Shown here: piece by piece, positions 8,464-59,208 of the stretch
Numbering within the stretch: the stretch's first letter is position 1
Layout of the letters: every line of letters starts with the position of its first letter
From: an uncultured Alphaproteobacteria bacterium
GTDB lineage: Bacteria; Pseudomonadota; Alphaproteobacteria; RF32; CAG-239
Direction of reading: 5' to 3'
Assembly (NCBI GenBank): GCA_949297145.1
Contig: CASFQO010000008.1
Location: 46,766-110,765, forward strand
DNA: 64,000 nt
The notes under the pieces: generated by a model
What the model saw: only the letters and a program-made list of their open reading frames with translations
The model's database searches: none
Told to the model about the DNA's origin: nothing
Program-made: the position numbers and the translations under genes

Positions 8464-8606
8464 AAATTTTTTAAGTATTGATAGAGTATAATACAGATAA
8501 AACAATTTAGCCTGTTGATAAGTCGCGCCAATTTGTTTTCTAGTTAGACTTTTAAAAATAAAAGTTTTAATTATAAATAGATGGAAAATTATTTAGAGGG
8601 TTAATC

Positions 8607-8798
8607 ATGTATTATAAAGCTTTAGTAATCGGTTTCGCTGTTCTAATATTGGCTGCATGTAATTTAGTCGGCAGCTATTATGAACCAGAACCTGTTGGTA
8701 TAGGTAAAGATGTATACGAATTGAAACTATCACCATGTGCTTGCATAGAGGTGGAATTACCAAAAACATTGCCGGATTGGTTCAAGGCAATCAGCTAA
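8607..8798 (+). CDS. virB7: Small (63 aa) lipoprotein, VirB7-like candidate, sandwiched between two virB8 paralogs
   Basis: Lipobox L-A-A-C at residues 15-18 (LILAACNL); AGAGGG RBS; size and position match rvhB7 of Rickettsiales. Confidence 0.5.
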   Translation: MYYKALVIGFAVLILAACNLVGSYYEPEPVGIGKDVYELKLSPCACIEVELPKTLPDWFKAIS

Positions 8799-8809
8799 GG
8801 TAAAAATCT

Positions 8810-9568
8810 ATGGTAGAGCAGCTATCCTCGGAAAATACAAAAAAACTTTTATTGGAAGGGCAAACTGGAGAAAAGCCTCGTCCTAAAATGGCGCGTCCTC
8901 ACAAAAGAGGTTCAGCGGATGTTATTGTCGAAAACGCAACAGAAAAAAGATATTTATGGACTGCCAGAGCTTTTGCTATTATCTTTGCGGTGAGCTTGTG
9001 TTGTAACTTAATCTTAACATACGTTGTATTTGCTATAATGCCACTCTATCGTATAGAGCCGTATTTGTTTAGTTTTGCAGAGAAAAAAGATCAAATCTAT
9101 ACAATCCATCCGGTTAAAAATATTTATGAGTATAAATACTTAACGGAAATCTTTATAAGAGAATATGTTTTATTACGTAATACCTTTGTTAACGACGTTA
9201 ATGAGATGGAACAACGTTGGGGGACAGGAAGCACTATTCAAGAAATGTCATCCCCAGGGGTTTATAGTAAATTTAAAGAGGAATTTGCTGATAAGGCAAT
9301 TGATTTAATTAGAAATCACAATATTACACGCAACATTAAAATCGCCTCAGTAACAGAAGTTGGTGGTAAAAATGGTGAAATGTGGTGGCAGGTAGAGTTT
9401 AGAGTTGAAGATATGATGCCCGAATTTGAAACACCGAGGTTAAGTGTGTGGTTGGCATCTGTCAAAATACAATATAGGGCCAAAAGGGTAACTTTTGGAG
9501 AAAGATTAAAAAATCCATTAGGGTTTACGGTACTTGATTATAAACAAGTAGAGAGAAAAACAAACTGA
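8810..9568 (+). CDS. virB8: VirB8-like T4SS inner-membrane protein, paralog 2
   Basis: TM AFAIIFAVSLCCNLILTYVVFAI; C-terminal motif RLKNPLGFTVLDY parallel to paralog 1. Confidence 0.7.
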   Translation: MVEQLSSENTKKLLLEGQTGEKPRPKMARPHKRGSADVIVENATEKRYLWTARAFAIIFAVSLCCNLILTYVVFAIMPLYRIEPYLFSFAEKKDQIYTIHPVKNIYEYKYLTEIFIREYVLLRNTFVNDVNEMEQRWGTGSTIQEMSSPGVYSKFKEEFADKAIDLIRNHNITRNIKIASVTEVGGKNGEMWWQVEFRVEDMMPEFETPRLSVWLASVKIQYRAKRVTFGERLKNPLGFTVLDYKQVERKTN

Positions 9569-9587
9569 TTGGGTGTAGGATAATTAG

Positions 9588-18463: not shown

Positions 18464-18464
18464 G

Positions 18465-22820: not shown

Positions 22821-22889
22821 AAAAGAACAGATTGACGAAGGTTAAGATGTTTGCTAAGATAAGACATAAGGAAATTTGGGAGTGTATAA

Positions 22890-23870
22890 ATGGGAAAGCT
22901 TGAGGATGAAGTTCTTTGCTCTGTATTAAGACCATTATCATATTGGTATGATCAGGAGAATATAGAAGAAGTCGCTATAAATCATCCTGGCGATATATGG
23001 CTGCGCTTGCGCGGCAAAAGAGCCTTTCCATGGGTGAACTATAAGGATCCTAAATTAACCAGAGAATATTTGACAAATTTACTGCATATAATAGCAAATT
23101 TAAATGATCAAGAGTTTGATCCGATAAATGGTTCACCGGTTGTTTACGCCAGAATTCCTGGAGGACATCGTTTTACAGGTATCGCCGGAAAAAATATTGA
23201 GTATGATTTAGATGATGCCGCGACTGGAGGAATAGCGATAGCGATACGTTTGCATTCGGATGATGTAGCATTTGGCTTTGGAGATTATGGCTTGGAGCAG
23301 GGGAAAAAATTAAAAGAGATTAATCCCTTAAAGCATATCAAAGATCCTGATGATGCGTATGAAAGGTTGCTGCTGGCATTACGCCGTGGAGACCATATCC
23401 TAGTGAGTGGTGGTACAGGAACTGGTAAAACGACATTATTAAACAACTTGCTAAAACTTCTGGATATACATAAAAGAGTAATAACGGTGGAGGATACGCG
23501 AGAACTTAATGTGCCGCAACCAAATCATGTACATATTGTTTTATCGCGTACAGAGCAGACGAATACGATGGATTATTCCAAAGTAATTGACTTGATTGTA
23601 CGTTTTACTCCAGATGCAATCATCGGCGGAGAAATTTCTACAAGTAATGCGGGAGCAATTTGGGAATTGATGGGATCAGGACACGATAACTGCCTAGCCA
23701 CAATACACGCAGAGAGCTCGACCGCCGCCTATGAAGCATTTGTAAAACGTATTATGAGAACACAGCCGAACATAGATGTTGAAAAAACGATAGAAGAGAT
23801 GCGTCGCAAACTTCACGTTGTGCAAATCGTAAGAGACGGCAATATTCGTGGAATTACAGAAATAACTTAA
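22890..23870 (+). CDS. virB11: VirB11 T4SS traffic ATPase
   Basis: Walker A VSGGTGTGKTT; 326 aa; VirB11/CpaF-like N- and C-terminal domains. Confidence 0.88.
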   Translation: MGKLEDEVLCSVLRPLSYWYDQENIEEVAINHPGDIWLRLRGKRAFPWVNYKDPKLTREYLTNLLHIIANLNDQEFDPINGSPVVYARIPGGHRFTGIAGKNIEYDLDDAATGGIAIAIRLHSDDVAFGFGDYGLEQGKKLKEINPLKHIKDPDDAYERLLLALRRGDHILVSGGTGTGKTTLLNNLLKLLDIHKRVITVEDTRELNVPQPNHVHIVLSRTEQTNTMDYSKVIDLIVRFTPDAIIGGEISTSNAGAIWELMGSGHDNCLATIHAESSTAAYEAFVKRIMRTQPNIDVEKTIEEMRRKLHVVQIVRDGNIRGITEIT

Positions 23871-23877
23871 ACATGAG

Positions 23878-24525
23878 CTAAGAATTTGCTAATTCAGCAA
23901 TTTCATATTTAAGCTCATCTAAATAAAGATTCTTTTCAGAGCTTGTTTTAAGTATGGTAACATGCGCAGCAGTATGTTCTTTAAGCTGTTTTTGAGTATC
24001 TTCGAGAATTCTTTCAAGTGCAGAAAGGCTAATTTTATCAATTTTCGTTAACACAACCTGATAAGTAACGGCCGCCTTATCCAACATATCCATAATTTCT
24101 GTATCAATTTTTTTGATACCATGCCTTGCATCTATCAGCAAGAAAACTCGCCGCAGATTAGGTCTGCCGACTAAATAAGCATTTATAAGTTGCTGCCAAT
24201 TACGAACAATATCTTTAGGCGCTTTCGCAAACCCATATCCGGGCAAATCAACAAGATAAAGTTTATCATCAAGATTAAAGTAATTAAGTTGTTGAGTGCG
24301 CCCTGGTGTAGATGATGTTTTAGCTAATTTTTTCTGCCCAAAGAGAGCATTAATCAAACTAGATTTTCCAACATTAGAACGTCCTGCAAAAGCAATCTCG
24401 GAGCGATCACCGTTTGGCAGCTGTTTCAGATTAGCGACGCTTAAAAGAAACGTGCATTTTTTATTGAAAAAATCTCGCCCTAATGCATATTTATCCATTT
24501 CGTCGTTGCTGTCATTAACCATCAA
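23878..24525 (-). CDS. engB: Ribosome biogenesis GTP-binding protein EngB/YihA
   Basis: G1 motif GRSNVGKSSLINAL; DLPGYG G3 motif; TKIDK G4. Confidence 0.9.
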   Translation of the reverse strand: MMVNDSNDEMDKYALGRDFFNKKCTFLLSVANLKQLPNGDRSEIAFAGRSNVGKSSLINALFGQKKLAKTSSTPGRTQQLNYFNLDDKLYLVDLPGYGFAKAPKDIVRNWQQLINAYLVGRPNLRRVFLLIDARHGIKKIDTEIMDMLDKAAVTYQVVLTKIDKISLSALERILEDTQKQLKEHTAAHVTILKTSSEKNLYLDELKYEIAELANS

Positions 24526-26198
24526 TCTACTCCGTTTTTGTGCATAATTGCTTTCTGTTGAATAATGGAGAGAATATTACTAAGTGTCCAGTAAATAACT
24601 AATCCGGATGCAAAATGTCCCAACATAAAGGTAAAGAATATAGGCATCAAAGCAAACATTCTAGCTTGATCTTTATTAACCGGAGCAGGGTTTAACTTTT
24701 GTTGCATCCACATCGTGAACCCCATGAAAATCGGCCATAAACCAATATCAATAAATCCCGGAACATAAATATGTAGAATTTGCGATAAAGTCAACGGGTC
24801 CGGAGCAGACAAATCCTTAATCCAACCAATGAAAGGAGCGTGTCTGATTTCAATAGCAATATTCAAAACTTTATACAAAGAAAAGAAGATAGGAATTTGA
24901 ATAAACAAAGGCAAACATCCTGCAGCCGGATTGATTTTTTCCCTTTTATATAATTCCATCGTAGCCTGCTGAATAAGCATCTGATTATCGCCGTATTTGG
25001 CACGAATATCATTGATTTTAGGTTGCAAAGCTTTCATCTTGGCCATACTGGTATAAGATTTATTTGCGATAGGGAACATACACAAACGTAGTAAAGCTGC
25101 AAACAATAAAATAGCCCATCCCATATTTCCAAGAAATCCGTACAAGAAATCAAGAATATAGAAGAATGGTTTGGTTAAGAAGTAATACCAACCAAAATCA
25201 ACCGCTAAATCAAACTTTGGAATATTATTGTCATTTGTATAAGAATCTAGCAATTTAACTTCTTTTGCCCCAGAGAAAAATCTATAAGAGTAAGACAGAG
25301 ATTTATGAGGAGGAACAATCATTCTGGAACCAAGGTAGTCTACTTGATAGTTATAATCGCCGTTATTTTTGAAACTAACAGAAGCCTTATCATCATTACC
25401 TAAAATGAGCGCAGAGAACCAATAACGATCAGAGAAACCAATCCATCCGCCCTTTGTATCAAATTTTTCACTATCTTCAGCATCCAAATCAGAATATTTA
25501 AACTCTTGGAGCGTATTATCAATAACGCCATTCATTCCTTCATGAACAACCGAACGAGTCTGAGCAAAATTCTTAATGTTACGACTAATAAGGGCATAAG
25601 GGAACAAATCAATATCCTGATTTGTATTATTGATAACAGTATCTTCAATCGTAAAGAGGTAGTTTTTATCAAGCGTGATTTTTCTCACAAATTCAAGCCC
25701 GTTACCATTATTCCAAGTTAAAACGACGGCGTTATCCGGAGTTAACTCAGAGGATGTTGAATTCCAAACAGTATCAGCAGTTGGTAATTTCAGAGACTTA
25801 TCTAGGGACAGCCATCCTAAATCAGCAAAATATTGATTTTCAGCCGCAGAAGGCTTTAATAGTTCAACCTTTGAACTATTTTCATCAAGAGAAACATTGT
25901 ATTTAGTTAAATACAAATCATCAAAGCGAGCACCTTTAAGCCGAATACTTCCGGAAACGGCATCATTTTTAAAATTAATGCGTTTATCCTCGGCAACAAT
26001 TTCCTGTGGTGTTTTTGCAGCTATCGGCGCTTTTTCTTCAACAACGGCATGATTTAAATTTTCAGCCATTTGCTCAACTTCAGAAACCTGTGTCTGAACA
26101 GTGCTGCTTTTATTAATACCAAAAAAATAATTAACGGTATAAATAGCAATAAACGATAAAACGATTGCTAAAGATAAAGCTCTTAAATCATCTTTCAT
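24522..26198 (-). CDS. yidC: Membrane protein insertase YidC
   Basis: 558 aa; large periplasmic domain followed by 5 TMs; conserved NPAAGCLPLFIQIP segment. Confidence 0.92.
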   Translation of the reverse strand: MKDDLRALSLAIVLSFIAIYTVNYFFGINKSSTVQTQVSEVEQMAENLNHAVVEEKAPIAAKTPQEIVAEDKRINFKNDAVSGSIRLKGARFDDLYLTKYNVSLDENSSKVELLKPSAAENQYFADLGWLSLDKSLKLPTADTVWNSTSSELTPDNAVVLTWNNGNGLEFVRKITLDKNYLFTIEDTVINNTNQDIDLFPYALISRNIKNFAQTRSVVHEGMNGVIDNTLQEFKYSDLDAEDSEKFDTKGGWIGFSDRYWFSALILGNDDKASVSFKNNGDYNYQVDYLGSRMIVPPHKSLSYSYRFFSGAKEVKLLDSYTNDNNIPKFDLAVDFGWYYFLTKPFFYILDFLYGFLGNMGWAILLFAALLRLCMFPIANKSYTSMAKMKALQPKINDIRAKYGDNQMLIQQATMELYKREKINPAAGCLPLFIQIPIFFSLYKVLNIAIEIRHAPFIGWIKDLSAPDPLTLSQILHIYVPGFIDIGLWPIFMGFTMWMQQKLNPAPVNKDQARMFALMPIFFTFMLGHFASGLVIYWTLSNILSIIQQKAIMHKNGVD

Positions 26199-28753: not shown

Positions 28754-29992
28754 CTAAAAAGATAAAGTAACTTCTTTGACCGTGTTATCTTTAACTTCAA
28801 AAAATTGTGAGATATCCTTAAAAGAAACAAATTCAGATAAATCTGTGGTTGTTAACCATGCTTGCAGTTGTAAATTCTGAATTTTAGCCAAGAAAGCATC
28901 TCTTTTCGCCTCGTCAAGGTGAGCCGCAACTTCATCAAGTAATAAAATAGAAGGCATACCTCTGGAACAAAGTAAAGATTTAGCTTGCGCTAAAATAATA
29001 TTTAAAAGCAATGATTTCTGCTCTCCTGTAGAACATAAGGCTGCAGGAACATTTTTCTTTTTGTAAATAACACATAAGTCAGTTTTATTAAGATTATTGC
29101 CAGCATCATTAAATAATATATTCCGCCGCTGATTAAACAGGGATTCTCTGTAATAATCTTCCACATAAATAGCAGGCTTCTCGTCAAGCATGGTCTCAAT
29201 AGTGCCATCAAGGGTGAGAAGAGCGTCAGGAAAAGTGTCATCTGGATTCTGCTCAATAAAAGTATTAAGTTTTTGAACTTGTTCCCTTCTTGCCGCTGCA
29301 ATAGCAACACCAATTCCAGACATTTGTTCTTCTAAGGCCTCGAGCCAAGAAGTATTAATGTTACCACTTTTCAGAATTTGCAACCACTGCCGATAAAGAT
29401 TATCATAAGCGGAGATTCTTCTGGCATGTTCTACATCAAAAGCATATACGATTCTATCAAGAAAACTCCGGCGTAACTGAGCGCCCCCCTGAAAGAGCCT
29501 ATCCATCTGAGGTGTGACCCAAATAATAGAAAGATAATTGCCTAATTCATTTTGGGAAGAAAGTTTTTGATTATTGATTTGAACAATACGACGTTCAACT
29601 TCTTTTGTTTCATTGTAATCAAATTCTTTGAGGACACTTTCAACGGCGGTACCAATATTAAATTCTTCACCAAATTTTTCAACTTGAGCAGAAACGGCCC
29701 ACCCGCTATTATTGATAAAAACTGGGGAAGATTGTTGCTTAGCTAAAAAATCAAAAGTCTTAACTTCAGCGAGTTTTGCATTACGTAAACCTCTTCCTTG
29801 AGATAAAAAAGAAACTGCTTCAAGCACGTTAGTCTTGCCGCTACCGTTTTCTCCACCAAACACAATAAAAGGCTTATGCAGATTAAGACGCAAATATTTA
29901 TAGTTCCGAAAATTAACTAAGGTCAGGCGCCTTACGGCAGACCTAACCTTAGCATCATCAATGATAGAACTACTAAAAGCTACAGCACTCAC
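28754..29992 (-). CDS. recF: DNA replication and repair protein RecF
   Basis: Walker A GENGSGKTNVLEA; ABC-type signature; dnaA-dnaN-recF synteny. Confidence 0.9.
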   Translation of the reverse strand: MSAVAFSSSIIDDAKVRSAVRRLTLVNFRNYKYLRLNLHKPFIVFGGENGSGKTNVLEAVSFLSQGRGLRNAKLAEVKTFDFLAKQQSSPVFINNSGWAVSAQVEKFGEEFNIGTAVESVLKEFDYNETKEVERRIVQINNQKLSSQNELGNYLSIIWVTPQMDRLFQGGAQLRRSFLDRIVYAFDVEHARRISAYDNLYRQWLQILKSGNINTSWLEALEEQMSGIGVAIAAARREQVQKLNTFIEQNPDDTFPDALLTLDGTIETMLDEKPAIYVEDYYRESLFNQRRNILFNDAGNNLNKTDLCVIYKKKNVPAALCSTGEQKSLLLNIILAQAKSLLCSRGMPSILLLDEVAAHLDEAKRDAFLAKIQNLQLQAWLTTTDLSEFVSFKDISQFFEVKDNTVKEVTLSF

Positions 29993-31111
29993 TTAGATTC
30001 TCATTGGCATCAAAACATAAATAGCACTGTTATCAGAAGTGTCGTTAATTACCGTAGCAGCCGCACTGCCAGATAAACTAAAGCGTACTTCTTCACCTTT
30101 AATTTGAGCTAAAATATCCAACAAATAACGGAAGTTATATCCTGTATCTATCGGTTCCTTGTCATATTTTGCTTCTAATTCTTCTGTTGCATTACCAAGT
30201 TCTGCATTAGAAGCAGCAATTGTAACACGATTTGTATCTGTAATCATACGAATACCGCGGCTTCTTTCTGTAACAACGGAAACACGATCGACAGCAGCAG
30301 CTAGTTCTTTAACATTAACCTCTAAAATTTTATCATTATCGGTCGGAATAACTCTTTCATAATCAGGAAAAGTACCGTCAATAAGTTTAGAAGTCAAAGT
30401 GATGTCTTCAAACGAAATGCGAACTTTGTTTTCGGATAAGGCCATAGAAACCGTTTCAGTTGATGCATCATCAAGTAATTTTCTGATTTCAAGAACAGAC
30501 TTTCTCGGAATAATAACACCTTCCAACTTTTCAGCTCCCTCAGGAAGAGGAGATTCGGCGCAAGCTAATCTATGCCCATCTGTTGCAACAACACGCAAAA
30601 CTTTGGTATCACCTTCATTCTTAGCATGAACATAAAGACCGTTCAAATAATAACGAGCTTCTTCAACAGATGCTGAAAATTGTGTGCGATCAATAAGAGT
30701 CTTTAATTCATCTCTGCTAATATCAAAATTAACCGGTAAATCATCGCCTGAAATAATTGGAAAATCTTCAACCCCAATTGTTGATAAAGAAAACTTAGAA
30801 CGACCGGAAGAAATACTTAAAGCATTTTTTTCATCAGGATATGTAATTTCAACATCAGAACCATCAGACAGTTTTCTGACAATGTCATAAAGCATATGTG
30901 CCGGAGCTGTTGTTGCACCTGGTTCAATAACTTGAGCTTCAACGATTTCGGTTATTTCAATATCCATATCCGTTGCTTTAAAATTGATGCAAGAGTCTTT
31001 AGCTTCGATTCTGACATTAGATAAAACCGGAATGGTGTTTCTCTTCTCAACGATGCTCTGAACATGGCTGAGAGTCTTTAATAGATGTGCGCGTTCAATT
31101 GTAAATTTCAT
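29993..31111 (-). CDS. dnaN: DNA polymerase III beta sliding clamp. Start placed at the internal MKFTIERAHL; the upstream in-frame 20 codons are a likely ORF-caller over-extension.
   Basis: Three-domain clamp; typical N-terminus MKFTIER…; C-terminal …MPMRI. Confidence 0.9.
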   Translation of the reverse strand: MKFTIERAHLLKTLSHVQSIVEKRNTIPVLSNVRIEAKDSCINFKATDMDIEITEIVEAQVIEPGATTAPAHMLYDIVRKLSDGSDVEITYPDEKNALSISSGRSKFSLSTIGVEDFPIISGDDLPVNFDISRDELKTLIDRTQFSASVEEARYYLNGLYVHAKNEGDTKVLRVVATDGHRLACAESPLPEGAEKLEGVIIPRKSVLEIRKLLDDASTETVSMALSENKVRISFEDITLTSKLIDGTFPDYERVIPTDNDKILEVNVKELAAAVDRVSVVTERSRGIRMITDTNRVTIAASNAELGNATEELEAKYDKEPIDTGYNFRYLLDILAQIKGEEVRFSLSGSAAATVINDTSDNSAIYVLMPMRI

Positions 31112-31218
31112 TATCTTTATCCTAAAAAAAGACTTATTTTTATCTTTCCACACTGTATCACAAATCAACAAAAGCAGAAGTCAAAAAATAAGTCTTCAAC
31201 AAGTTTTTTTATATAGTT

Positions 31219-32679
31219 TTAATTTTCAAGCGTTCTTCTTAAAATTTCAATATTTTCAGCTAAAGACTGATCTTCAAGAATCAGTTCTTCAACTTTTCTG
31301 ACCGCATGCATAACAGTTGTATGATCTCTATCAAATTTACGGCCGATTTCCGGCAAAGAACGAGAGGTCAATTGCTTAGCAAGATACATGGCAATCTGTC
31401 TTGGTCTTGCAACTGTTCTAGCTCTGCGAGAAGACTGAAGTTCTTTAACGGAGATATTAAAGTGTTCAGCAACTTTTTTCTGAATTTCATCAATGGTTGT
31501 TTTTCTGTCAATAGAACGCAACATATCCTTAAGAACATCTTGTGTCATATCAAGAGTAATTTCTTTGCCTGACAAAAGCTGAGAATGTGCCGCAACTCTC
31601 TTTAAAGAACCTTCCAATTCGCGGACGTTTGAAGTAATTTTCTGAGCCAAGAATTCAGCAACTTTTTGAGGCAATTCAATTCCCATTAATTCAGCTTTTT
31701 TCTGTAAGATGCCCATTCTTAATTCAAAATTCGTCGGCATAATGTCAACAACCAAACCACCAACCAAACGAGATTTTAAGCGCTCTTCGATTCCTTCCAA
31801 ATCTGTTGGAGATTTGTCGGCTGAAATAATAACTTGTTTGCCTTCCTCAACCAATGAACTGAATGTGTGGAAGAATTCTTCTTGAGTCGTACCTTTGTTA
31901 CCCATAAACTGGAAGTCATCAACCATTAACACGTCAACAGAGCGAAATTGTTCTTTAAATGCTGCAGTATCTTTGTAACGAAGCGCCTTAACAAATTTAT
32001 AAACAAATTGCTCAGCTGTAAGATAGATAACATTACGGGTCGGATCATTCTTTTTGATGTGCCAAATAATGGAATGCATCAAGTGAGTCTTTCCTAATCC
32101 AACACTGGAATATAGGAACAGTGGGTTGAATGATACATTTTTAGATTCTGCAACTTTACGAGCAGCGGCATAAGCAAATTCATTTGTCTTACCAACAACA
32201 AAGTTTTCAAAAGTGTAGTTCGGATTTAAAGGTGTTCCGTTAGTGATATTGTTGTTTGAGCTGTCGTTAGCAAGACTTGATCCGGCAACCAAACCAAATG
32301 AACTGCTGTTTATATTACATCCATAAATATTTTGAGGTGTTGGTGAAGATGAAATCTTTTTCAAAAGAGATGTATCAACGCTACGTCTATCACCAAACCC
32401 TGTTTGAACAACAAAATTAATCTTCTTAACATCTGGATTCTGTTGCTCCCAAATTTTATTGATTCTGTCTGAATAGTGAGTAACAACCCAGTTTTTCATA
32501 AAAGCGGTCGGTGCGCATATATTCATAACTCCGTCTTTGAAGTCACCGACTGTAAGCGGTTTTAACCAACTGTCAAACGCAGTTTCCCCAAACTCCATTT
32601 TCAGTTGGTTGCAAATTTGGCTCCATTGTGTATCAATAGAACGTCCTTCACTTACAAATGCTTCTTCTGCCATATCCAT
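31219..32679 (-). CDS. dnaA: Chromosomal replication initiator DnaA
   Basis: AAA+ Walker A GSVGLGKTHLMHSI; C-terminal DNA-binding signature …FDRDHTTVMHA. Confidence 0.93.
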   Translation of the reverse strand: MDMAEEAFVSEGRSIDTQWSQICNQLKMEFGETAFDSWLKPLTVGDFKDGVMNICAPTAFMKNWVVTHYSDRINKIWEQQNPDVKKINFVVQTGFGDRRSVDTSLLKKISSSPTPQNIYGCNINSSSFGLVAGSSLANDSSNNNITNGTPLNPNYTFENFVVGKTNEFAYAAARKVAESKNVSFNPLFLYSSVGLGKTHLMHSIIWHIKKNDPTRNVIYLTAEQFVYKFVKALRYKDTAAFKEQFRSVDVLMVDDFQFMGNKGTTQEEFFHTFSSLVEEGKQVIISADKSPTDLEGIEERLKSRLVGGLVVDIMPTNFELRMGILQKKAELMGIELPQKVAEFLAQKITSNVRELEGSLKRVAAHSQLLSGKEITLDMTQDVLKDMLRSIDRKTTIDEIQKKVAEHFNISVKELQSSRRARTVARPRQIAMYLAKQLTSRSLPEIGRKFDRDHTTVMHAVRKVEELILEDQSLAENIEILRRTLEN

Positions 32680-41348: not shown

Positions 41349-41491
41349 ATGAAAGTTAAAACAACTATCAAGCAACCCCTTATACACATACAAGTACAAT
41401 CAAAGAGATGACGAGACTTTAATTTCTCTTTTAACGATAAATTCAGCATTCACCGCTAAAATACCATCAAAATCATAGGAGAAGAGAAAAG

Positions 41492-42274
41492 ATGAAAAAA
41501 ATCAGTATTGCCTGCATAATTGCCACAATCATAACCACCAGTTGCTCCTTGTTTAATCTGAACAAGGAAGAAAAATTTGTAAATCCGGTCTTTTATGAAA
41601 AAATGATTTCAGCATCGCATGCAAAGTTTGAAATGCAATTAACCCCAACAAATATTTATATGGTCTCCAGTAAAGACTTTAAGTATAATTATACCTGCAA
41701 ACTCATTAACAACCAAATGGATACAGTTAGTTTGGAATGTTTTAAATATAACTACAAAAACGAAAAAGAAGAGACACAAGTTTTCACATATACTCTAAAA
41801 CCTTGCAATGAAGAAAATATGTGTCTGGATAAAGGGGGCTGGCTCGTTTATCAAAAAATCAGACCTATCAAATATTATGATGAAACAATCACCTATATAA
41901 TTCCTTCAAAATCTGAAAACGCTCCCAAAGATAAATTTGTAAATCCTTTGTTTTATAAAAAATTATCTCCCAGATCCAAAAATACAAGACCAACCTTTTT
42001 AACACCGACTTCTGTCACATACTATGACTTATATGGCAACGCGGTTGTTGGAAGATGTAAAATACTGGAAAACACACCGATGTTTGTGACATTAGATTGT
42101 ACTTTTTATGTTGAAGAAACTAAAGAAACATATAGTCAAATTGTTCGCTATGTATTAAGAGGTTGCGATGAGCAAAAAGAATATTGCTTTGGCGGTAAAT
42201 GGTTTGTACTGGAAAATGCATTCGGAAATAGTATAGGAACACTCGTCATAGATAAAAAAGATATGGGGCAGTAA
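41492..42274 (+). CDS. Lipoprotein, tandem paralog A (260 aa), with an internal two-fold repeat of a ~125-aa 4-Cys module
   Basis: Lipobox ITTSC; about 90% identity to the next gene; conserved 5' region. Confidence 0.6.
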   Translation: MKKISIACIIATIITTSCSLFNLNKEEKFVNPVFYEKMISASHAKFEMQLTPTNIYMVSSKDFKYNYTCKLINNQMDTVSLECFKYNYKNEKEETQVFTYTLKPCNEENMCLDKGGWLVYQKIRPIKYYDETITYIIPSKSENAPKDKFVNPLFYKKLSPRSKNTRPTFLTPTSVTYYDLYGNAVVGRCKILENTPMFVTLDCTFYVEETKETYSQIVRYVLRGCDEQKEYCFGGKWFVLENAFGNSIGTLVIDKKDMGQ

Positions 42275-42288
42275 AAACCGCCCCTTTT
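42265..42288 (+). terminator. Rho-independent terminator after lipoprotein paralog A
   Basis: GGGGCAG…CCGCCCC stem followed by TTTT; the same element recurs at 43121-43144. Confidence 0.55.
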
Positions 42289-42347
42289 AACGATAAATTC
42301 AACTTTTCTCCCTAAAATACCATCAAAATCAATGGAGAAGATAAAAG

Positions 42348-43130
42348 ATGAAAAAAATCAGTATCGCCTGCATAATTGCCACAATCATAACCACCAGTTG
42401 CTCCTTGTTTAATCTGAACAAGGAAGAAAAATTTGTAAATCCGGTCTTTTATGAAAAAATGATTTCGGCATCGCATTCAAAGTTTGAAGTGCAATTAACC
42501 CCAACAAGTATCTATATGGTTTCCAGTAAAGATTTTAAGTATAATTATACTTGCAAACTCATTAACAACCAAATGGATACAGTTAGCTTGGAATGTTTTA
42601 AATATAACTACAAAAACGAAAAAGAAGAGACACAAGTTTTCACATATACTCTAAAACCTTGCAATGAAGAAAATATGTGTCTGGATAAAGGGGGCTGGCT
42701 CGTTTATCAAAAAATCAGACCTTTCAAATATTTTGATGAAACAATCACCTATATAATCCCCTCAAAGTCTGAAAACGCTCCCAAAGATAAATTTGTAAAT
42801 CCATTGTTTTATAAAAAATTATCTCCCATATCACGAGATACAAGACCAACCTTTTTAACGCCAACTTCTGTTACCACGATAGATTTATATGGAAAAGAGG
42901 ACGTTGGAAGATGTAAAATGCTGGAAAACACACCGATGTTTGTGACATTAGATTGTACTTTTTATGTTGAAGAAACTAAAGAAACATATAGTCATGTTGT
43001 TCGTTATGTATTAAGAGGTTGCAACGAGCAAAAAGAATATTGCTTTGGAGGTAAATGGTTTGTATTGGAAAATGAATCTGGTAGTGCTTTTGGAACATTT
43101 GTAATCAAAGAAAAAGATATGGGGCAGTAA
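42348..43130 (+). CDS. Lipoprotein, tandem paralog B (260 aa)
   Basis: N-terminus identical to paralog A; divergent in the last third. Confidence 0.6.
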   Translation: MKKISIACIIATIITTSCSLFNLNKEEKFVNPVFYEKMISASHSKFEVQLTPTSIYMVSSKDFKYNYTCKLINNQMDTVSLECFKYNYKNEKEETQVFTYTLKPCNEENMCLDKGGWLVYQKIRPFKYFDETITYIIPSKSENAPKDKFVNPLFYKKLSPISRDTRPTFLTPTSVTTIDLYGKEDVGRCKMLENTPMFVTLDCTFYVEETKETYSHVVRYVLRGCNEQKEYCFGGKWFVLENESGSAFGTFVIKEKDMGQ

Positions 43131-43144
43131 AAACCGCCCCTTTT
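43121..43144 (+). terminator. Rho-independent terminator after lipoprotein paralog B
   Basis: Same GGGGCAGTAAAAACCGCCCC TTTT element as after paralog A. Confidence 0.55.
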
Positions 43145-43203
43145 AACGATAAATTCAACATTCACCGCTAAAATGCCATTAAAATCAGTGGAGAAGAGAA
43201 AAG

Positions 43204-43701
43204 ATGAAAAAAATAGGCACAATTTTAGTTATCATACTACTAAGCATATCCGTAGCAAATGCCAAAGAAGTTATTCATGGAATTGATATTGATGAAGTGT
43301 ACAATAATGGCGATTGGAGTAGTAAAGAATACATTAAACAATTAATAAACGACTATACTTTATTTATAGAGATAAAAAAGCAATTAAACGAATGTTCAAC
43401 AAATCAATCAGATCAAGCAAACTGCATAGATACAATAACTCAAAAAATACTGCAAAATTTCTATACGGATTTTACCTTAAATTGGAATAATTACAATGAA
43501 TTTAAAAAAATAAGTCAAAAAATTTATTCCGTACCATATTGCTCTGATAAATTTTCAGGTGCAGGAGGTACAATGTGCGAAATAGACACAGAAATTCATA
43601 TTTCATCTATTTTAAATGCATATGCAGAAACGCTACTATCATCGCTAAATAATATTTTTAGTGAAAACTACCCTTTTTTACAAAATTACACCTCAAACTA
43701 A
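43204..43701 (+). CDS. Secreted hypothetical protein (165 aa, 4 Cys) sharing the repeated 5' UTR/RBS of the two lipoprotein genes
   Basis: Signal peptide MKKIGTILVIILLSISVANA; third copy of the conserved upstream element. Confidence 0.5.
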   Translation: MKKIGTILVIILLSISVANAKEVIHGIDIDEVYNNGDWSSKEYIKQLINDYTLFIEIKKQLNECSTNQSDQANCIDTITQKILQNFYTDFTLNWNNYNEFKKISQKIYSVPYCSDKFSGAGGTMCEIDTEIHISSILNAYAETLLSSLNNIFSENYPFLQNYTSN

Positions 43702-43741
43702 ATAGAGAGATGGAATTTTCCTCCATCTCTCTATTGGGCAA

Positions 43742-44575
43742 TTAGTCCGCTAGATGTGCATCTCGAGCTCTATTAAGCCAACCTTGTAAAAATTTTTTCT
43801 TTTTAGGTTCTTTTCTTACAACCTTATAAAAGTATTTCATCATTTCTGTCCGATATTGATTCAAAAAAAGCTCATAATCTTTCTGTGTAAAAGATTTAAA
43901 CTTATCTAATGTTGTTGTCCCGATAATATTACCTTCAGGAATACCTAAAACCCGATGTGTTGTTTTTATTGCTGTTAAAGGATTAGAAACAACACCAAAA
44001 TCAACAACAGCCCCACGTATTTGATAAGGTAGCTTATTAAGACCATTCCATTTATAATAATTTTTATAGAAAATAGCATTAGCTCTTTCTCTCGTTAAAT
44101 TTTTAATATCTTCATTTGGATAAGTATTTTTTGAAATACCCATATTTGTTTCACCACCACTATCATCTTTATCATTATTATATCCGCCCTCGTTAGGAAT
44201 AAGATAATCATTTACTATATGATAAAACTCTGCATCATTCAACATTTCATCAATAAAATTTTTACTAAAACCTTCACCATATTTTGCATAATCCACTGTG
44301 GCATCACTTGCATGGTTAGTCCTATCATTTTTGGCGTATTGTGTGCCTTGAGATGATAAAAGCGAATTTCCGGTTTCTTGTGTTAAAATTTTCTGAGCCA
44401 GCCCATTTTGATTAGCCATCATATAAGCCATTGAGTCATGAATATCGGCATTTTTTTCAATTCCCTCTAATGAGCCATATTTTCGCAACAATCTTTTCAA
44501 TTCCAATTCATTATCTGCATCCGCCAATCGCTGATGTTCAAGAATATCATCATCAAAATTATAAGAAAAGGTCAT
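43742..44575 (-). CDS. Glycoside hydrolase family 108 (lysozyme-like) protein with a C-terminal peptidoglycan-binding (PG_binding_3-like) region and a ~120-aa N-terminal extension
   Basis: NEGGYNNDKDDSGGETNMGI matches the GH108 EGGY-x-D-GG-T-x-GI signature; C-terminal …FLQGWLNRARD. Confidence 0.6.
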   Translation of the reverse strand: MTFSYNFDDDILEHQRLADADNELELKRLLRKYGSLEGIEKNADIHDSMAYMMANQNGLAQKILTQETGNSLLSSQGTQYAKNDRTNHASDATVDYAKYGEGFSKNFIDEMLNDAEFYHIVNDYLIPNEGGYNNDKDDSGGETNMGISKNTYPNEDIKNLTRERANAIFYKNYYKWNGLNKLPYQIRGAVVDFGVVSNPLTAIKTTHRVLGIPEGNIIGTTTLDKFKSFTQKDYELFLNQYRTEMMKYFYKVVRKEPKKKKFLQGWLNRARDAHLAD

Positions 44576-44861
44576 GTTTCTTTCCTTTCATAACAAAAAT
44601 TAAAACAAAAAAGAGCCACGAAAAAATGTCGTAGCTCTTGGTTAAAAATAGGATTGTCCACTTGTAAATTTCCCATAAAAAAAGCCCTCAAACCGAGAGC
44701 CAAATCCGGGATATACAAACACACTCACCCATTATGACAACATTTATACCTTCCCCCGACAGAACTGTCAATACATCTGAAAATAAAACGAAAAATATTT
44801 TTGCAAAGTAAAAATAAGACCATACAAATTGAATAAAATCTTCACGCAAGAATAAAGGCAC

Positions 44862-44895
44862 CGAGTAAAGAGCTTGGTGCCTTTATTTTATATAT
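44862..44895 (+). terminator. Orphan rho-independent terminator-like hairpin in a 490-bp intergenic region
   Basis: AAAGGCACC-(loop)-GGTGCCTTT followed by ATTTTAT. Confidence 0.35.
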
Positions 44896-45066
44896 AACTT
44901 TTGCCAAAAATTATTTTTCCAGTGGACTATAAATAATTCCTGCAAAAAATCATAAAGGTATTATAATTTCTATAACTATAAATTTGCTTTAAATGAGTTA
45001 AGCAGAATATTAGCAAATATTTTACCATTTGACGCTTATGATTTCTCAAACATAAGGAGAAAGATA

Positions 45067-46104
45067 ATGTCGTGCTATTTAATTACCGGAGGAGCCGGAT
45101 TTTTCGGAACAGTACTAAAACAATATTTGTTGGATAAAGGAAACGAATGCATCAGCATAGATTTGGAGCCGGATGCTTTTAGACATAAAAATTTCACAGC
45201 CTACCAAGGCGACATTAACGATAAAGAACTAATGGAAAAAATCTTCTCCACCCATAAAATAGACGCCATCTTTCATTGTGCCGCATTATTAGCACACGTA
45301 AAAAAAGACTTGAAGAGATTATGGCATGCCAATGTAGACGGTACACAAAGCGTATATGATTTTGCTCTTCGTTATGGTGTAAAAAAGATAGTGTTTATTT
45401 CAAGCAATTGCTTGTGGGCCAAAAATTTTGATACGGAAGTAACCGAAGAAGAAACACCAAATCCGGTAGAAATATATGGCAAGTCAAAATTAGAAGGTGA
45501 AAAAATCTTATTATCGCAACCAGATAAAATAAACAGTATCATTTTCCGCAGTCCAACGATAATGGATGAGGGGCGCTTGGGGTTGCTAGGAATCCTTTTT
45601 GAATTTATTGATGAGGGCCGAAAATTACCGATGGTCGGCGATGGCACAAACCGTTATCAATTTATTTACGCAAAAGATTTAGCAAGAGCTTGCGAATTAG
45701 CTTTAGATGCAGATTATTCGGACGTATTTAATATAGGCGCCGATGATGTTAAAAGTTTCAATGAAGTCTATGAATATGTCATCAAAAAATCCGGTTCCAA
45801 ATCACGCTTATTCCATTTTCCGAAACTCCCAATGATATGGGCGATGAAAATCTGTTTTTGGCTTGGAATATCGCCTTTAGGTCCGTACCAATATAAAATG
45901 ATTGCTTCAAATTTTATTTTTGATACTCAAAAAATAAAACAAAAATTAGGATTCAAACCAACCTTAACCAATGAAGAAATGCTTTTACGCGCTTATGAGT
46001 TTTACCACAAAAATAAGGATGAAATTTTACACCGTAAAAATGTATCAGCACACAATTCCGTTGCTAAAATGGGTGTAATAAAAATCTTAAAATGGTTGAT
46101 GTAG
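45067..46104 (+). CDS. NAD-dependent epimerase/dehydratase family protein (SDR extended family)
   Basis: N-terminal ITGGAGFFG Rossmann motif; Y-x3-K active-site pair (YGKSK). Confidence 0.8.
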   Translation: MSCYLITGGAGFFGTVLKQYLLDKGNECISIDLEPDAFRHKNFTAYQGDINDKELMEKIFSTHKIDAIFHCAALLAHVKKDLKRLWHANVDGTQSVYDFALRYGVKKIVFISSNCLWAKNFDTEVTEEETPNPVEIYGKSKLEGEKILLSQPDKINSIIFRSPTIMDEGRLGLLGILFEFIDEGRKLPMVGDGTNRYQFIYAKDLARACELALDADYSDVFNIGADDVKSFNEVYEYVIKKSGSKSRLFHFPKLPMIWAMKICFWLGISPLGPYQYKMIASNFIFDTQKIKQKLGFKPTLTNEEMLLRAYEFYHKNKDEILHRKNVSAHNSVAKMGVIKILKWLM

Positions 46105-46128
46105 AAATCTAAATCAACTATCTTCTTA

Positions 46129-47166
46129 TTACTTTTTAAATTTAAGAAAGTAATAAGCTGTGTAAGCAAAGGCATAATTTATGGCAAGCCAACCTATCCA
46201 ATAAATAATTTGCCAAATGGCAGATTGAGATTCAACAGCATACTGAATGAAATTTCCCCGATACAGAAAACCATTAAAACCAAAAAGATATGGACTTATT
46301 TTTCCAGTAAAAACCCAAAACTGGTTTTGAGTAGGAAATAATTTATAAATACTCAAAAAGATAACAGCACTAAAAAGGAAACTGAAAGCAAAAGCATAGA
46401 AGTATATTTGAGCCAAAATAAGTACTATAAGTGATACGAGTAGAGAGAGCAGATTGAAGCGACGTGCACTAAGAAAAAGTAATTTTTGCTCATACAAGGC
46501 TAAAAATATCCCTAAAGAAAATTCAGGAATATGTCCGGCAGCATTTGCATACAGACTAACCGTGGCTCCATTAAAATTAATCCAATAAAAGGCAAGAACA
46601 ACGTAAACAAACCAAATAAAAATAATGTTAGAAATATCTTTAGAAATCAATTTATATAAAACGAAAAAACAAAGATAAAGTTGAATAATTAAAGAAAAGA
46701 ACCACCATGGTCCACAAACAATAAATAAGGTTTCAGGAGTTAAAGTAGATGTTAACGATAAAACCTTACCAAGAGCTTTAAAATTAATATCAGGGACAAT
46801 AACACAGTAGACGCAAGCACTAATAAGAAATAGTTTATAAATCTTAAAAATATGCGCAGCAATAAATGGAATAACCTTTTTCTTTGTATTTACAAAAGAC
46901 TTAGTAATTCCGTATCCGCTGAGAAAAACAAAAATATACACGCCATAAAATCCTAAGAAGGAAAAAAGACAGTTAACAATTTCCGACCAACTGAAGTCTT
47001 GAATAAATTTAGAAAAGTTAGCAGGATTAAGCGCCATTTCATTTTGATAAGTAACAGGAGGAAAAAGATGAAAAAAATTATGGGAAATAATACAGAAAAT
47101 TGCGATTCCCTTTAAGGCAAGAGATTGATTTCTGGTCAAATATACCTCACTGTTATCGCTCATCAC
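46129..47166 (-). CDS. Acyltransferase-3 family integral membrane protein
   Basis: 345 aa with ~10 hydrophobic segments; composition typical of OafA/acyltransferase_3 proteins. Confidence 0.6.
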   Translation of the reverse strand: MMSDNSEVYLTRNQSLALKGIAIFCIISHNFFHLFPPVTYQNEMALNPANFSKFIQDFSWSEIVNCLFSFLGFYGVYIFVFLSGYGITKSFVNTKKKVIPFIAAHIFKIYKLFLISACVYCVIVPDINFKALGKVLSLTSTLTPETLFIVCGPWWFFSLIIQLYLCFFVLYKLISKDISNIIFIWFVYVVLAFYWINFNGATVSLYANAAGHIPEFSLGIFLALYEQKLLFLSARRFNLLSLLVSLIVLILAQIYFYAFAFSFLFSAVIFLSIYKLFPTQNQFWVFTGKISPYLFGFNGFLYRGNFIQYAVESQSAIWQIIYWIGWLAINYAFAYTAYYFLKFKK

Positions 47167-47698
47167 AAACCTCCTTATTTAAAATTTCCGAAGCAACGTC
47201 ATAATTAAAACCAGCCCGGATAAGCGTAGCAAGATCTTTTTGTTGCATCTCTTTACGGGTACTTTCATCGGCGCGAAAACAAGCAATTTTCTTTTTGCGG
47301 GCAAAGTTTAGAGCTGTTTCAAATTCAGAATATTCTGAATTATCAAAAAAACGATTGACAATTTGCTCATCAATACCTTTTGCTCGAAGTTTTTGCTCAA
47401 TGTATCGACGAGATTTTCCGGCACGAAGATAATCATTGATTTTAAATTCCGCAAAACGTTCATCACTAACAAAATGATGAGAAACACACTCCTCGATAAT
47501 TTCCTCCACCCACTGATAGGCTTGTTCTGGAGAGTAATCTTTATTGACGAAAGCATATTTATCAATCCGTTTACGCAAAACGCTGCGAAGATTGTCAACA
47601 GAAGTTTCGTAGCGCTCCAAATAATATAGAGCCACATTGCGCAAGCGAACTTTTGTCGGTATTTTAGGTTGCGATTTTTTCGTTTTTTCTGTAAACAC
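47153..47698 (-). CDS. recX: Regulatory protein RecX-like
   Basis: 181 aa; triple helical-repeat pattern; …AEFKINDYLRAGKSRRYIEQKLRAKGIDEQIV… resembles the RecX consensus. Confidence 0.6.
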   Translation of the reverse strand: MFTEKTKKSQPKIPTKVRLRNVALYYLERYETSVDNLRSVLRKRIDKYAFVNKDYSPEQAYQWVEEIIEECVSHHFVSDERFAEFKINDYLRAGKSRRYIEQKLRAKGIDEQIVNRFFDNSEYSEFETALNFARKKKIACFRADESTRKEMQQKDLATLIRAGFNYDVASEILNKEVCDER

Positions 47699-47769
47699 TT
47701 GAAAATTACCTTTTAATATACTAACTTCAACATAAGTGTATATATCTTTATATAATAGGAGATAAAGAA

Positions 47770-48693
47770 TTGTCTAACAAAAGTTTTGATGAATGTGCAT
47801 CATTCTTGATTGATAATGGCATATTTGTAGGTCGTATATGCCGCTTAGAAAATGTTTTAAAAACGATAATAGAAAAACATGGATATATGAAAAACGTATC
47901 AGCAGCGCTTAGTGAAACAACAGCGTTAGCGGTATTGTTGGCAAATGCATTAAAGTTTGAAGGCTTGTTTACTTTACAATTACAAGGTAACGGCCCTGTT
48001 TCAACCATTGTAGTGGATGTAACCTCAGATGGTAAACTTCGCGCATGCGCAAATTATGACAAAGAGAGATTGGAAAAAGCATTTGCTCTGCGTAAAAACG
48101 AAGGAGAAATAGAGGCAACGCCTCATTTGTTGGGAGAAGGGACTCTTGCTTTCACAATAGACGATGGCAAAAACAATTACCATCAAGGTGTAGTTGATTT
48201 GCAAGGTAAAACGTTGGAAGAATGTGCTTTGAGATATTTCAAGCAATCCGAGCAAATTGAAACAATGCTGAAATTATATATAGACATACCAACAACAGAT
48301 GAGGGAGTTTGGAAAGCAGGCGGGATAATCTTACAAAAGATACCGGAACTAGGAGGTAAACAAATTGACGTTTCTGAAATACCTGAGTTACGCAACGAAG
48401 CAGAAATTTTGCTGAATTCATTGACTAAAGAAGAATTGTTTGATGAAAAATTGAGTTTACAAGAAATTTTACACCGCCTATATCACGGTAATAATTTAAT
48501 GCTGACCAAAGATAATCATTACGAATTCAAATGTCGTTGCAGTAGAGAGAAACTCTTGAAAACGTTAAGAAGTTTTTCAGAAGATGAATTAGCATCAATG
48601 CTTGATGAAAATTCAAAAATAACTGCAAAATGCGGATTCTGTTCAGAAATTTATGAATTTACGATTCCAGAAATAAAAGAAAAACTTAATTGA
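47770..48693 (+). CDS. hslO: 33-kDa redox-regulated chaperonin Hsp33
   Basis: C-terminal zinc centre CRCSREK…AKCGFCSEIY (C-x-C … C-x2-C). Confidence 0.88.
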   Translation: MSNKSFDECASFLIDNGIFVGRICRLENVLKTIIEKHGYMKNVSAALSETTALAVLLANALKFEGLFTLQLQGNGPVSTIVVDVTSDGKLRACANYDKERLEKAFALRKNEGEIEATPHLLGEGTLAFTIDDGKNNYHQGVVDLQGKTLEECALRYFKQSEQIETMLKLYIDIPTTDEGVWKAGGIILQKIPELGGKQIDVSEIPELRNEAEILLNSLTKEELFDEKLSLQEILHRLYHGNNLMLTKDNHYEFKCRCSREKLLKTLRSFSEDELASMLDENSKITAKCGFCSEIYEFTIPEIKEKLN

Positions 48694-59037: not shown

Positions 59038-59103
59038 TGTTGATAGATACTTTTTAGCTTGAAAAATAGCTGGATATATTTCATAAAAGATAAGTATAAA
59101 TAT

Positions 59104-59189
59104 GAAGGGTGCAGGGTTGTTTTGCTGCCAACTCGGTCAGGTTCGGAAGAAAGCAGCCGTAACAGTTAAAATAAGGTCTGTTACCCTTC
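59104..59189 (+). ncRNA. ffs: Signal recognition particle RNA (small bacterial 4.5S type)
   Basis: Conserved domain IV motif GGUCAGGUUCGGAAGAAAGCAGCC; 5' GAAGGGU pairs with 3' ACCCUUC; typical position immediately upstream of dnaX. Confidence 0.7.
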
Positions 59190-59208
59190 TCCTCAAAAGA
59201 TAGAAAAG

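Follow-up and report, generated by a model that had tools for sequence, protein, structure and literature searches.

A putative immunity gene array for polymorphic cell-wall toxins beside recG in an uncultured gut alphaproteobacterium

The 64-kb stretch of DNA considered here (the window; contig CASFQO010000008.1) comes from an uncultured low-GC (36%) gut alphaproteobacterium. On the 3' side of recG it carries three successive genes for exported proteins, two encoding closely similar lipoproteins (A1 and A2) and one a protein unrelated to them beyond its start (B), each preceded by a copy of the same upstream element (U). The array faces a convergent gene for a GH108 muramidase. The question raised by the locus is what these proteins do and why unrelated genes should share their upstream region. 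The reading preferred here, at a probability of about 0.68, is that this is a periplasmic immunity (muramidase-inhibitor) gene array, part of a polymorphic cell-wall-toxin system of gut Alphaproteobacteria. An immunity function for A1, A2 and B is suggested by gene neighbourhood, in the window and in related genomes.

Muramidase genes facing the array genes

Open reading frames (ORFs) were called in about 60 fetched loci from gut alphaproteobacterial metagenome-assembled genomes (MAGs) and classified with hidden Markov models (HMMs) built from seed sequences. The related loci all come from human-gut MAGs, whose labels read uncultured Alphaproteobacteria, proteobacterium or Rickettsiales; L numbers below denote individual loci. 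The sequence extends at least 400 bp downstream of 62 A-type genes. For 41 of these the next gene is convergent, encodes 250–460 aa without a signal peptide and mostly lies across a gap of 16–18 bp, a pairing that holds down to about 30% identity of A. Elsewhere the next gene is another A (five), a B- or D-type gene (six) or a GH108 gene (one). In the convergent partner, E121, D130 and T136 are invariant and spaced E-9-D-6-T, like the catalytic residues of T4 lysozyme. The PDB family that it matches best is that of T4 lysozyme, and hhalign aligns the partner with residues 3–110 of this enzyme (probability 85.7%, E 5.5e-6). Judged by its sequence, the partner of A in relatives is a T4-lysozyme-like (GH24-like) muramidase; examples are L005:8802-9728 and L043:259-1185.

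Other exported proteins have partners of their own. B-type genes are convergent with GH108+PG_binding_3 genes, in relatives as in the window, where the 277-aa product matches GH108 (E 3.6e-19) and is homologous to solved muramidases of the SagA/TtsA type (SagA 7DNP, E 1e-11). Two further secreted types, C and D, are convergent with VgrG3-like_C or variant GH108 genes; the matches to T6SS_VgrG3-like_C in one effector class have E values of 1e-26 and 2e-33. Pairing goes by type: A with GH24-like, B and D with GH108, and C with VgrG3-like enzymes. In the window's clade, all of these hydrolase genes open with the same domain of about 115 aa (MTFSYNFDDDILEHQRL..., 72–92% identity), fused to a GH24-like (T4-lysozyme/pesticin-like), GH108+PG_binding_3 or VgrG3-like_C domain. 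This N-terminal domain had no Pfam match in scans of six effectors, and its breadth is known from the fetched loci only, a word-indexed search having returned just two proteins. The effectors have no signal peptide, and all of their partners have one. A single N-terminal domain with interchangeable hydrolase domains, each with its own signal-peptide partner, points to a polymorphic effector-immunity architecture. The compartments also match, as far as sequence features tell, the toxin domains being hydrolases of peptidoglycan and their partners carrying export signals, a lipobox in A and a Sec signal in B.

Several genomes have two or three such pairs (L032, L036, L043 and L052). Of these, L043 has the full layout, with A facing a GH24-like gene and then B facing a GH108 gene. 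Shortened effector copies whose partner has been kept are frequent (L001, L010, L011 and L034).

Individual loci illustrate how variable the surroundings can be. In L001, with flanks 99.5% identical to the window, the 5' half of the GH108 gene and the sequence upstream of it (L001:7395-8814, compared with window 44115-44837) have been swapped for a gene encoding a 254-aa OMP_b-brl (porin-like) protein. A 128-aa effector stump is left, and B is an orphan there too. In another species (L067:7001-9166), a two-module A, a single-module A with the same signal peptide and a convergent GH24-like gene are found between dnaJ and dnaK, so that modules land in differing housekeeping contexts. L017:3131-8783, on an 80-kb contig, has the appearance of a hotspot for effector and immunity genes: three genes or fragments carrying the N-terminal domain (88, 258 and 402 aa, the last with a weak SLT match) are interleaved there with a C-type gene, a single-module A and a two-module A.

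In the window, A1, A2 and B face one GH108 effector gene, and neither a GH24-like gene nor a second copy of the ~115-aa domain was found within the 64 kb. B is next to GH108, and family A is adjacent to its muramidases in relatives; A1 and A2 have no adjacent cognate effector, and are therefore read as orphan immunity genes. A and B would bind and block muramidases in the periplasm, B guarding against the strain's own GH108 effector and the orphans A1 and A2 guarding the periplasmic cell wall against T4-lysozyme-like effectors from neighbouring strains.

A number of points weigh against an immunity array. The effector and immunity genes converge instead of sharing a transcript, an uncommon layout for effector-immunity pairs, and for nine of the 62 A genes, most of them single-module, no effector could be recognised in the vicinity. 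The GH24 assignment rests on sub-gathering Pfam matches (Pesticin and Phage_lysozyme) together with the hhalign result. Only 64 kb of the genome was seen, and a GH24-like effector could lie elsewhere in it. A and B have no fold or sequence kin among known immunity proteins or lysozyme inhibitors. The ~115-aa shared domain sits at the N-terminus, whereas the XVIPCD signal of known bacteria-killing type IV secretion systems (T4SS) is C-terminal. Finally, the single-copy strain variants described below could be assembler collapses at identical stretches.

The same molecular core, a periplasmic muramidase inhibitor, would also be expected of autolysin-inhibitor pairs like SagA/PhiA of Brucella, in which the cell's own wall-remodelling muramidases, serving for example to make room for a T4SS machine or to release cargo as TtsA does, would be restrained by secreted partners, A1 and A2 among them. 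The homology of the GH108 protein to SagA and TtsA-type enzymes and the T4SS encoded 20 kb upstream are in keeping with this. So is the likeness to the Brucella pair itself, an alphaproteobacterial T4SS-linked GH108 muramidase paired genetically with a small, disulfide-containing periplasmic partner, PhiA (PMC8334348). An autolysin role is nevertheless unlikely. Several hydrolase domains, including a toxin domain of the VgrG3 type from type VI secretion systems (T6SS), share one N-terminal domain, and the two or three pairs per genome, the shortened effectors with partners kept, the presence or absence at strain level and the orphan partners are typical of antagonism toxins rather than of one assembly factor. 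Brucella has one conserved pair, and the present system is polymorphic. SagA is anchored in the membrane by its C-terminus and lacks the shared N-terminal domain; the window GH108 protein has no transmembrane anchor. PhiA has the MliC/PliC fold, an eight-stranded beta-barrel, whereas B is predicted to be helical and A has a different beta module without an MliC/PliC signature: no Pfam match of A to MliC was obtained, and no Foldseek match in the PDB to MliC, PliC or PhiA.

The lipoproteins A1 and A2 and the third exported protein

The array consists of an 856-bp tandem unit (41428-42283 and 42284-43139, with 786 of 856 bases, or 92%, identical) made up of the promoter/leader U, a 260-aa lipoprotein gene and a hairpin, followed by a third, partial copy of about 75 nt that precedes gene 3, the gene for B (Table 1). 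The 17-mer TTTTAACGATAAATTCA occurs exactly three times in the 64 kb, on the + strand at 41429, 42285 and 43141, with a chance expectation of 0.2; none of 100 shuffles reached three copies. The three upstream regions have 88% column identity through the Shine-Dalgarno sequence to ATGAAAAAAAT, beyond which gene 3 departs, having only U and the MKKI start in common with genes 1 and 2. The array lies between recG on one side and the GH108 gene on the other, in housekeeping surroundings (mfd, recG, epimerase, recX and hsp33).

Table 1. Positions of the array features, and of the type IV secretion genes, within the 64-kb window.
Feature	Position	Strand	Remarks
U1, promoter/leader, first copy	41428–41491	+	Motif TTAACGATAAATTCAG 41431–41446; -10-like TAAAAT 41457–41462; Shine-Dalgarno GGAG 41478–41481
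A1 (gene 1), 260-aa lipoprotein, two 4-Cys all-beta modules	41492–42274	+	Lipobox ITTSC, Cys18; putative orphan immunity/inhibitor protein for a T4-lysozyme-like effector
Hairpin 1, GGGGCAGTAAAAACCGCCCC	42265–42284		5' arm overlaps A1 stop codon
U2, promoter/leader, second copy	42285–42347	+	Variable segment ACTTTTCTCCC
A2 (gene 2), 260-aa paralogue of A1	42348–43130	+	90% aa identity to A1; C-terminal domain with allele segments 97–98% identical to L007 and L027
Hairpin 2, identical to hairpin 1	43121–43140		Overlaps A2 stop codon
U3, promoter/leader, third copy, 5' of gene 3	43141–43203	+	Same variable-segment variant as U1
B (gene 3), 165-aa Sec-secreted protein, 4 Cys, predicted helical bundle	43204–43701	+	Putative cognate immunity protein of adjacent GH108 effector
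Perfect 14-bp hairpin between convergent B and GH108 genes	43701–43735		-21.5 kcal/mol, z -5.7; putative bidirectional terminator
GH108 gene, 277 aa, no signal peptide	43742–44575	-	~115-aa shared N-terminal domain, GH108 muramidase, PG_binding_3; putative cell-wall toxin
Type IV secretion genes (context only)	7705–23870	+	VirB8 x2, VirB9/CagX-SPOR, 2306-aa beta-flower protein, 1451-aa VirB10/TrbI, VirB11

A1 and A2 are identical at 235 of 260 residues. Their coding sequences differ at 61 positions, 10 in the first 375 nt and 51 after, with dS 0.23 and dN/dS 0.22 overall (N-terminal domain 0.10, C-terminal domain 0.29), a divergence equal to that between alleles of different species-level MAGs. 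Both have a lipobox, read directly from the sequence (criterion: a signal peptide ending [LVI][ASTVI][GAS]C), the N-terminus being MKKISIACIIATIITTS-C18. The two halves of A are 29% identical (E 1e-12), with four Cys per module, and an AlphaFold model has two all-beta domains with the same strand order (pLDDT 83, pTM 0.78). B has a Sec signal ending in VANA before a K, four Cys and a predicted helical bundle (pLDDT 82). Thus far the first-pass annotation was accurate. It had described a shared upstream element in three copies with a ribosome binding site and MKKI start, of which gene 3 shares only the leader, and two lipoproteins about 90% identical, diverging chiefly toward the C-terminal part and each an internal duplication of a 4-Cys module. 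Its broader description of all three products as envelope proteins holds for two lipoproteins and one protein with a Sec signal.

An exhaustive HMMER search of 1.84 billion proteins gave 137 clusters of family A at 50% identity. Most members are single-module proteins of 120–160 aa. The Cys pairs are conserved in the family alignment. The lipobox Cys is kept in 18 of 22 aligned relatives, and across the family a lipobox is present in 86 of 172 representatives, the remainder having a plain signal peptide. Three larger members, P0184 (579 aa), P0193 (454 aa) and P0207 (388 aa), have three or four 4-Cys FxNPxF modules; from these, the module is one that has been amplified repeatedly within proteins.

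Comparisons with known families gave little. Pfam and NCBIfam scans of A, B, C and D returned sub-threshold noise only (CD47 V-set, Staphostatin, Euplotes pheromone), and a profile search of A against PDB sequences was empty. In Foldseek searches of the PDB, neither the A nor the B model had a match with E <0.001, the best E for A being not below 0.009. The top Foldseek matches for the two models, lipocalin-like/DUF4822 and TetR-like, had TM scores <0.25 and were dropped.

The remaining claim of the first-pass annotation, that these are antigenic or variable surface proteins, fares less well. Such lipoproteins would recombine to evade host or phage recognition, their link to muramidases being incidental, and some of what is seen here would be expected of them: alleles are mosaic, with variation in patches of the C-terminal domain, copy number may vary among strains, and the lipoproteins have no Asp at +2. 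The explanation is nonetheless distinctly improbable. The convergent pairing of A with lysozyme-like genes (41 of 62) persists to about 30% identity of A, gene 3 is paired with GH108, and dN/dS is about 0.2, and low in both domains. About half of family A are plain periplasmic proteins rather than lipoproteins, and the same promoter drives unrelated partners of other muramidases. A1 and A2 are a better fit as periplasmic immunity/inhibitor proteins of polymorphic cell-wall toxins.

The shared upstream element and recombination at the array

Element U comprises TTAAC-N6-TTCAAC, a -10-like box (TAnnaT) 20 nt after TTAAC, the Shine-Dalgarno sequence GGAG and an MKK start. Four mutually unrelated genes, A, B, C and D, have it on their 5' side in the window's clade. 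In other clades, unrelated immunity-type genes of one genome also share a near-identical upstream region, of a different sequence; the cross-clade core is tTTAACcaTAtnTTCAActTT, then five variable bases, then tTAtaaT. Within the -10-like box, the A and the final T are each found in 46 of 47 distinct sites. The relaxed pattern TT[AT]A-N7-TT[CT]AA is located 57–66 nt 5' of the ATG (mode 61) in 57 of 81 immunity-type genes, compared with 19 of 1046 other ORFs when it is allowed anywhere within 130 nt upstream. Given this conservation of a core motif 5' of unrelated immunity-type genes in many clades, U is more than a duplication scar. The cross-clade conservation argues for a compact promoter (a -10 box and an upstream direct-repeat site) with a leader of about 23 nt containing GGAG. 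The predicted transcription start is about 7 nt beyond TAAAAT, near 41469, 42325 and 43181. At 20 nt, TTAAC is more distant from the -10 box than a standard -35 element would be, so that an activator site is plausible. The motif resembles the CtrA box (TTAA-N7-TTAAC), which is a lead only. Such a promoter would give each immunity gene expression independent of an effector.

A generic sigma-70 scan was not above background, and an Rfam search of U and its surroundings returned nothing relevant. Elsewhere in the window no gene is marked by the motif TTAACNNTWWNTTCAA, and no wider regulon was evident within it. Pairing in U2 between TTTTCTCC and GGAGAAGA, considered as an anti-Shine-Dalgarno structure, was no better than in shuffles (z -1.1) and is absent from U1 and U3. 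Between TTCAAC and the -10-like box, U has a hypervariable segment of 9–11 nt (41448-41456, 42304-42312 and 43160-43168), with variants ATTCACCGC, TTTTCTCCC, ATTCGCATA and ATTTTTCTC across strains. U1 and U3 carry one variant and U2 another, found also in L006 and L044.

Similarity can extend beyond the start codon. Proteins of the C and D types (L008:8803-9273, L036:422-880 and L004:8856-9341) have an identical signal peptide, MKKIGYKIFLSTILGISLLSNSA, and unrelated mature parts. Two relatives of B, P0101 and P0102, have the first ~40 residues in common with it, followed by 45% overall identity. The exchanged unit therefore runs from the promoter into the signal peptide.

At the other end of the unit, the hairpins after genes 1 and 2 are identical (20 nt, -11.1 kcal/mol, z -2.6). 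They had been annotated as identical GGGGCAG...CCGCCCC terminators. Their identity stands, but they overlap the stop codons, the 5' arm encoding the conserved lipoprotein C-terminus (MGQ-stop); on the + strand just four T residues follow, and the terminator scanner scores the - strand instead. That minus-strand score is probably a relic of a convergent gene present in relatives. In L005, L006, L007, L031 and L043, nothing but this hairpin separates the stop codon of A from that of the convergent effector; with its T-runs on both sides, it seems to be a terminator for both directions. In the window it directly adjoins U; AAAAACCGCCCCTTTT also precedes the U of B in L043 and L036. This abutment of hairpin and U has the appearance of a deletion scar, left by loss of the effector.

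There are signs of recombination among strains. Positions 521–650 of gene 2 are 97–98.5% identical to L007 and L027 and 87% to gene 1; L007 becomes gene-1-like in the next segment, and L008 and L075 are block mosaics. Among loci with flanks 99.5–100% identical to the window, three forms are found: A1-A2-B, A1-B and hybrid-B. The second is represented by L001/L073, with the shortened GH108 gene and inserted porin-like gene, and the third by L081, where a hybrid gene is followed by B. The hybrid is like unit 1 for its first 82 nt and like gene 2 thereafter, with the crossover inside a 101-nt identical run. The contigs of L077, L078 and L079 begin inside gene 2 at a 135-nt identical run; that of L078 comes from another sample and matches window 42624-48201 at 100% identity. 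What seemed to be a zero-copy variant, L076, proved to be a scaffold gap of Ns and was set aside. As direct repeats, U, the hairpin and the A gene in its conserved 5' stretch would serve as substrates for homologous recombination. This would add, delete and shuffle cassettes, and could have yielded both the A1-A2 tandem and the mosaic alleles.

The junctions of the strain variants fall exactly in identical stretches, which is predicted by recombination and by assembler collapse alike, so that copy-number polymorphism among strains is likely but not proven. Of the expectations raised by the first-pass annotation, C-terminal mosaicism across strains is evident in the alleles described above. Differing copy number is seen among contigs, with the same reservation about assembler collapse. 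Its description of a recently amplified, recombining family holds as regards amplification and mosaic C-terminal alleles. A very recent in-situ duplication of A1/A2 was rejected: dS of 0.23 is as between species-level MAG alleles, and segments of gene 2 are nearer to other strains than to gene 1.

The tandem itself might have been created in assembly, by merging two strains, one with allele A1 and the other with A2. Samples of the same study do contain single-copy contigs, carrying A1 in L001/L073 and an A2-bodied gene in L081, and several contigs break inside the repeat. Such a merger is very improbable all the same. The junction of hairpin, U2 (ACTTTTCTCCC) and A2 is unique to the window tandem and absent from the single-copy contigs, L081 having U1 before A2, and together with the 61 coding differences it indicates no trivial artefact. 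The would-be chimeric join shares only about 20 nt; L078, identical to the window beyond its start inside A2, is from another sample; and tandem A-A arrangements are found in other species (L014, L063, L065 and L067).

An origin as remnants of a phage lysis cassette, with endolysin and spanin-like lipoprotein, is more doubtful still: although GH108, GH24 and PG_binding_3 are common in endolysins and the nearest NCBIfam model describes a holin-associated muramidase (58 bits, cut-off 240), there are no flanking holin, phage structural or integrase genes and the neighbours are housekeeping (recG/epimerase, dnaJ/dnaK), the muramidases have in addition the conserved N-terminal domain of ~115 aa, A is beta-rich, 260 aa long and without o-spanin or u-spanin features, and the genes are convergent.

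Known systems and genomic surroundings

As an immunity array, the locus would be of a known kind, that of polymorphic effector-immunity loci that include orphan immunity genes and evolve through recombination of tandem paralogues (PMC9484751, PMC10539506, PMC6099711). New would be the immunity-type families A and B, the domain at the effector N-terminus, the convergent arrangement in which a terminator is shared, the conserved immunity-gene promoter and the host group.

The X-Tfe/X-Tfi modules of the Xanthomonadales-type, bacteria-killing T4SS (PMC6536674) are similar in several ways. They too are dispersed chromosomal modules, with peptidoglycan hydrolase effectors sharing a conserved recognition domain of ~120 aa and periplasmic lipoproteins as immunity proteins; shortened effector fragments are common, and a T4SS is found in the same genome region. 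They differ in having a C-terminal XVIPCD recognised by VirD4, where the present effectors have an N-terminal domain and no XVIPCD in the Pfam scans of six, and in being bicistronic rather than convergent. Here the secretion system is a gut alphaproteobacterial T4SS with duplicated VirB8 and giant beta-flower components, for which a delivery role is a candidate only.

Tge/Tgi, which are glycoside hydrolase effector-immunity pairs, and VgrG3/TsiV3 of T6SS (PMC6099711) also combine muramidase toxins acting in the periplasm with signal-peptide immunity proteins that neutralise them, and one effector class here has the Pfam T6SS_VgrG3-like_C domain. Orphan immunity genes are likewise known in T6SS effector-immunity systems (PMC10539506). 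In contrast, no T6SS gene was seen in the window, the present effectors have no VgrG, PAAR or MIX features, and A and B have no detectable relation to Tgi or TsiV3.

In the arrangement of tandem immunity paralogues, the closest parallel is with the esaG/tipC arrays of type VII secretion systems (PMC9484751), strings of non-identical immunity paralogues with conserved blocks at the gene ends, at which homologous recombination leads to loss, gain and hybrids. Those proteins are cytoplasmic; here the host is Gram-negative, the proteins are periplasmic lipoproteins and the array has just two copies. The main block of homology here is the promoter/leader, which is also common to unrelated immunity families.

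A bolder version of the immunity reading is possible, but should be regarded as tentative. In this version the locus would belong to an undescribed interbacterial weapon with a new N-terminal targeting domain, the first dedicated proteinaceous GH24 inhibitor family and an immunity-gene regulon promoter that doubles as recombination substrate. Muramidase toxins would be delivered, possibly via the T4SS with giant beta-flower components; the 4-Cys beta-module (FxNPxF) would be a candidate inhibitor of T4-lysozyme-type (GH24) enzymes; and the promoter, with its response-regulator-like direct-repeat site TTAAC-N6-TTCAAC, would be a candidate for placing all immunity genes in one regulon.

Even in its more cautious form, the immunity reading gives a testable role to family A, which is unannotated (no Pfam or NCBIfam model), and would define muramidase toxins and cognate inhibitors in a poorly known group of uncultured human-gut Alphaproteobacteria. 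A and B are candidate specific protein inhibitors of T4-lysozyme-type and GH108 muramidases, respectively. U may be an example of a shared promoter cassette that both expresses and reshuffles immunity genes, which bears on strain competition in the gut, and the repeat structure explains why metagenome assemblies break at this locus.

Upstream in the window, the T4SS genes (Table 1) encode a candidate delivery machine, by analogy with the bacteria-killing T4SS (PMC6536674). The wider locus spans 2280-23870 (+). Its 2306-aa protein is of the beta-flower kind, with DUF3659 and RHS-like repeats; VirB9/CagX has a C-terminal SPOR domain, and the 1451-aa VirB10/TrbI has a beta-flower extension. Upstream proteins of 1801, 452 and 232 aa had no Pfam match. 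The duplicated VirB8 is reminiscent of Rickettsiales-type systems.

Between the T4SS genes and the array, a recF-dnaN-dnaA row, with yidC and a gene for an EngB-like GTPase near it (28754-32679 and 24522-26198, both on the - strand), suggests that the window probably adjoins the chromosomal replication origin. A bacterial small signal recognition particle (SRP) RNA at 59101-59195 (+), with 55.8 bits, is the sole Rfam family above its gathering score in the window.

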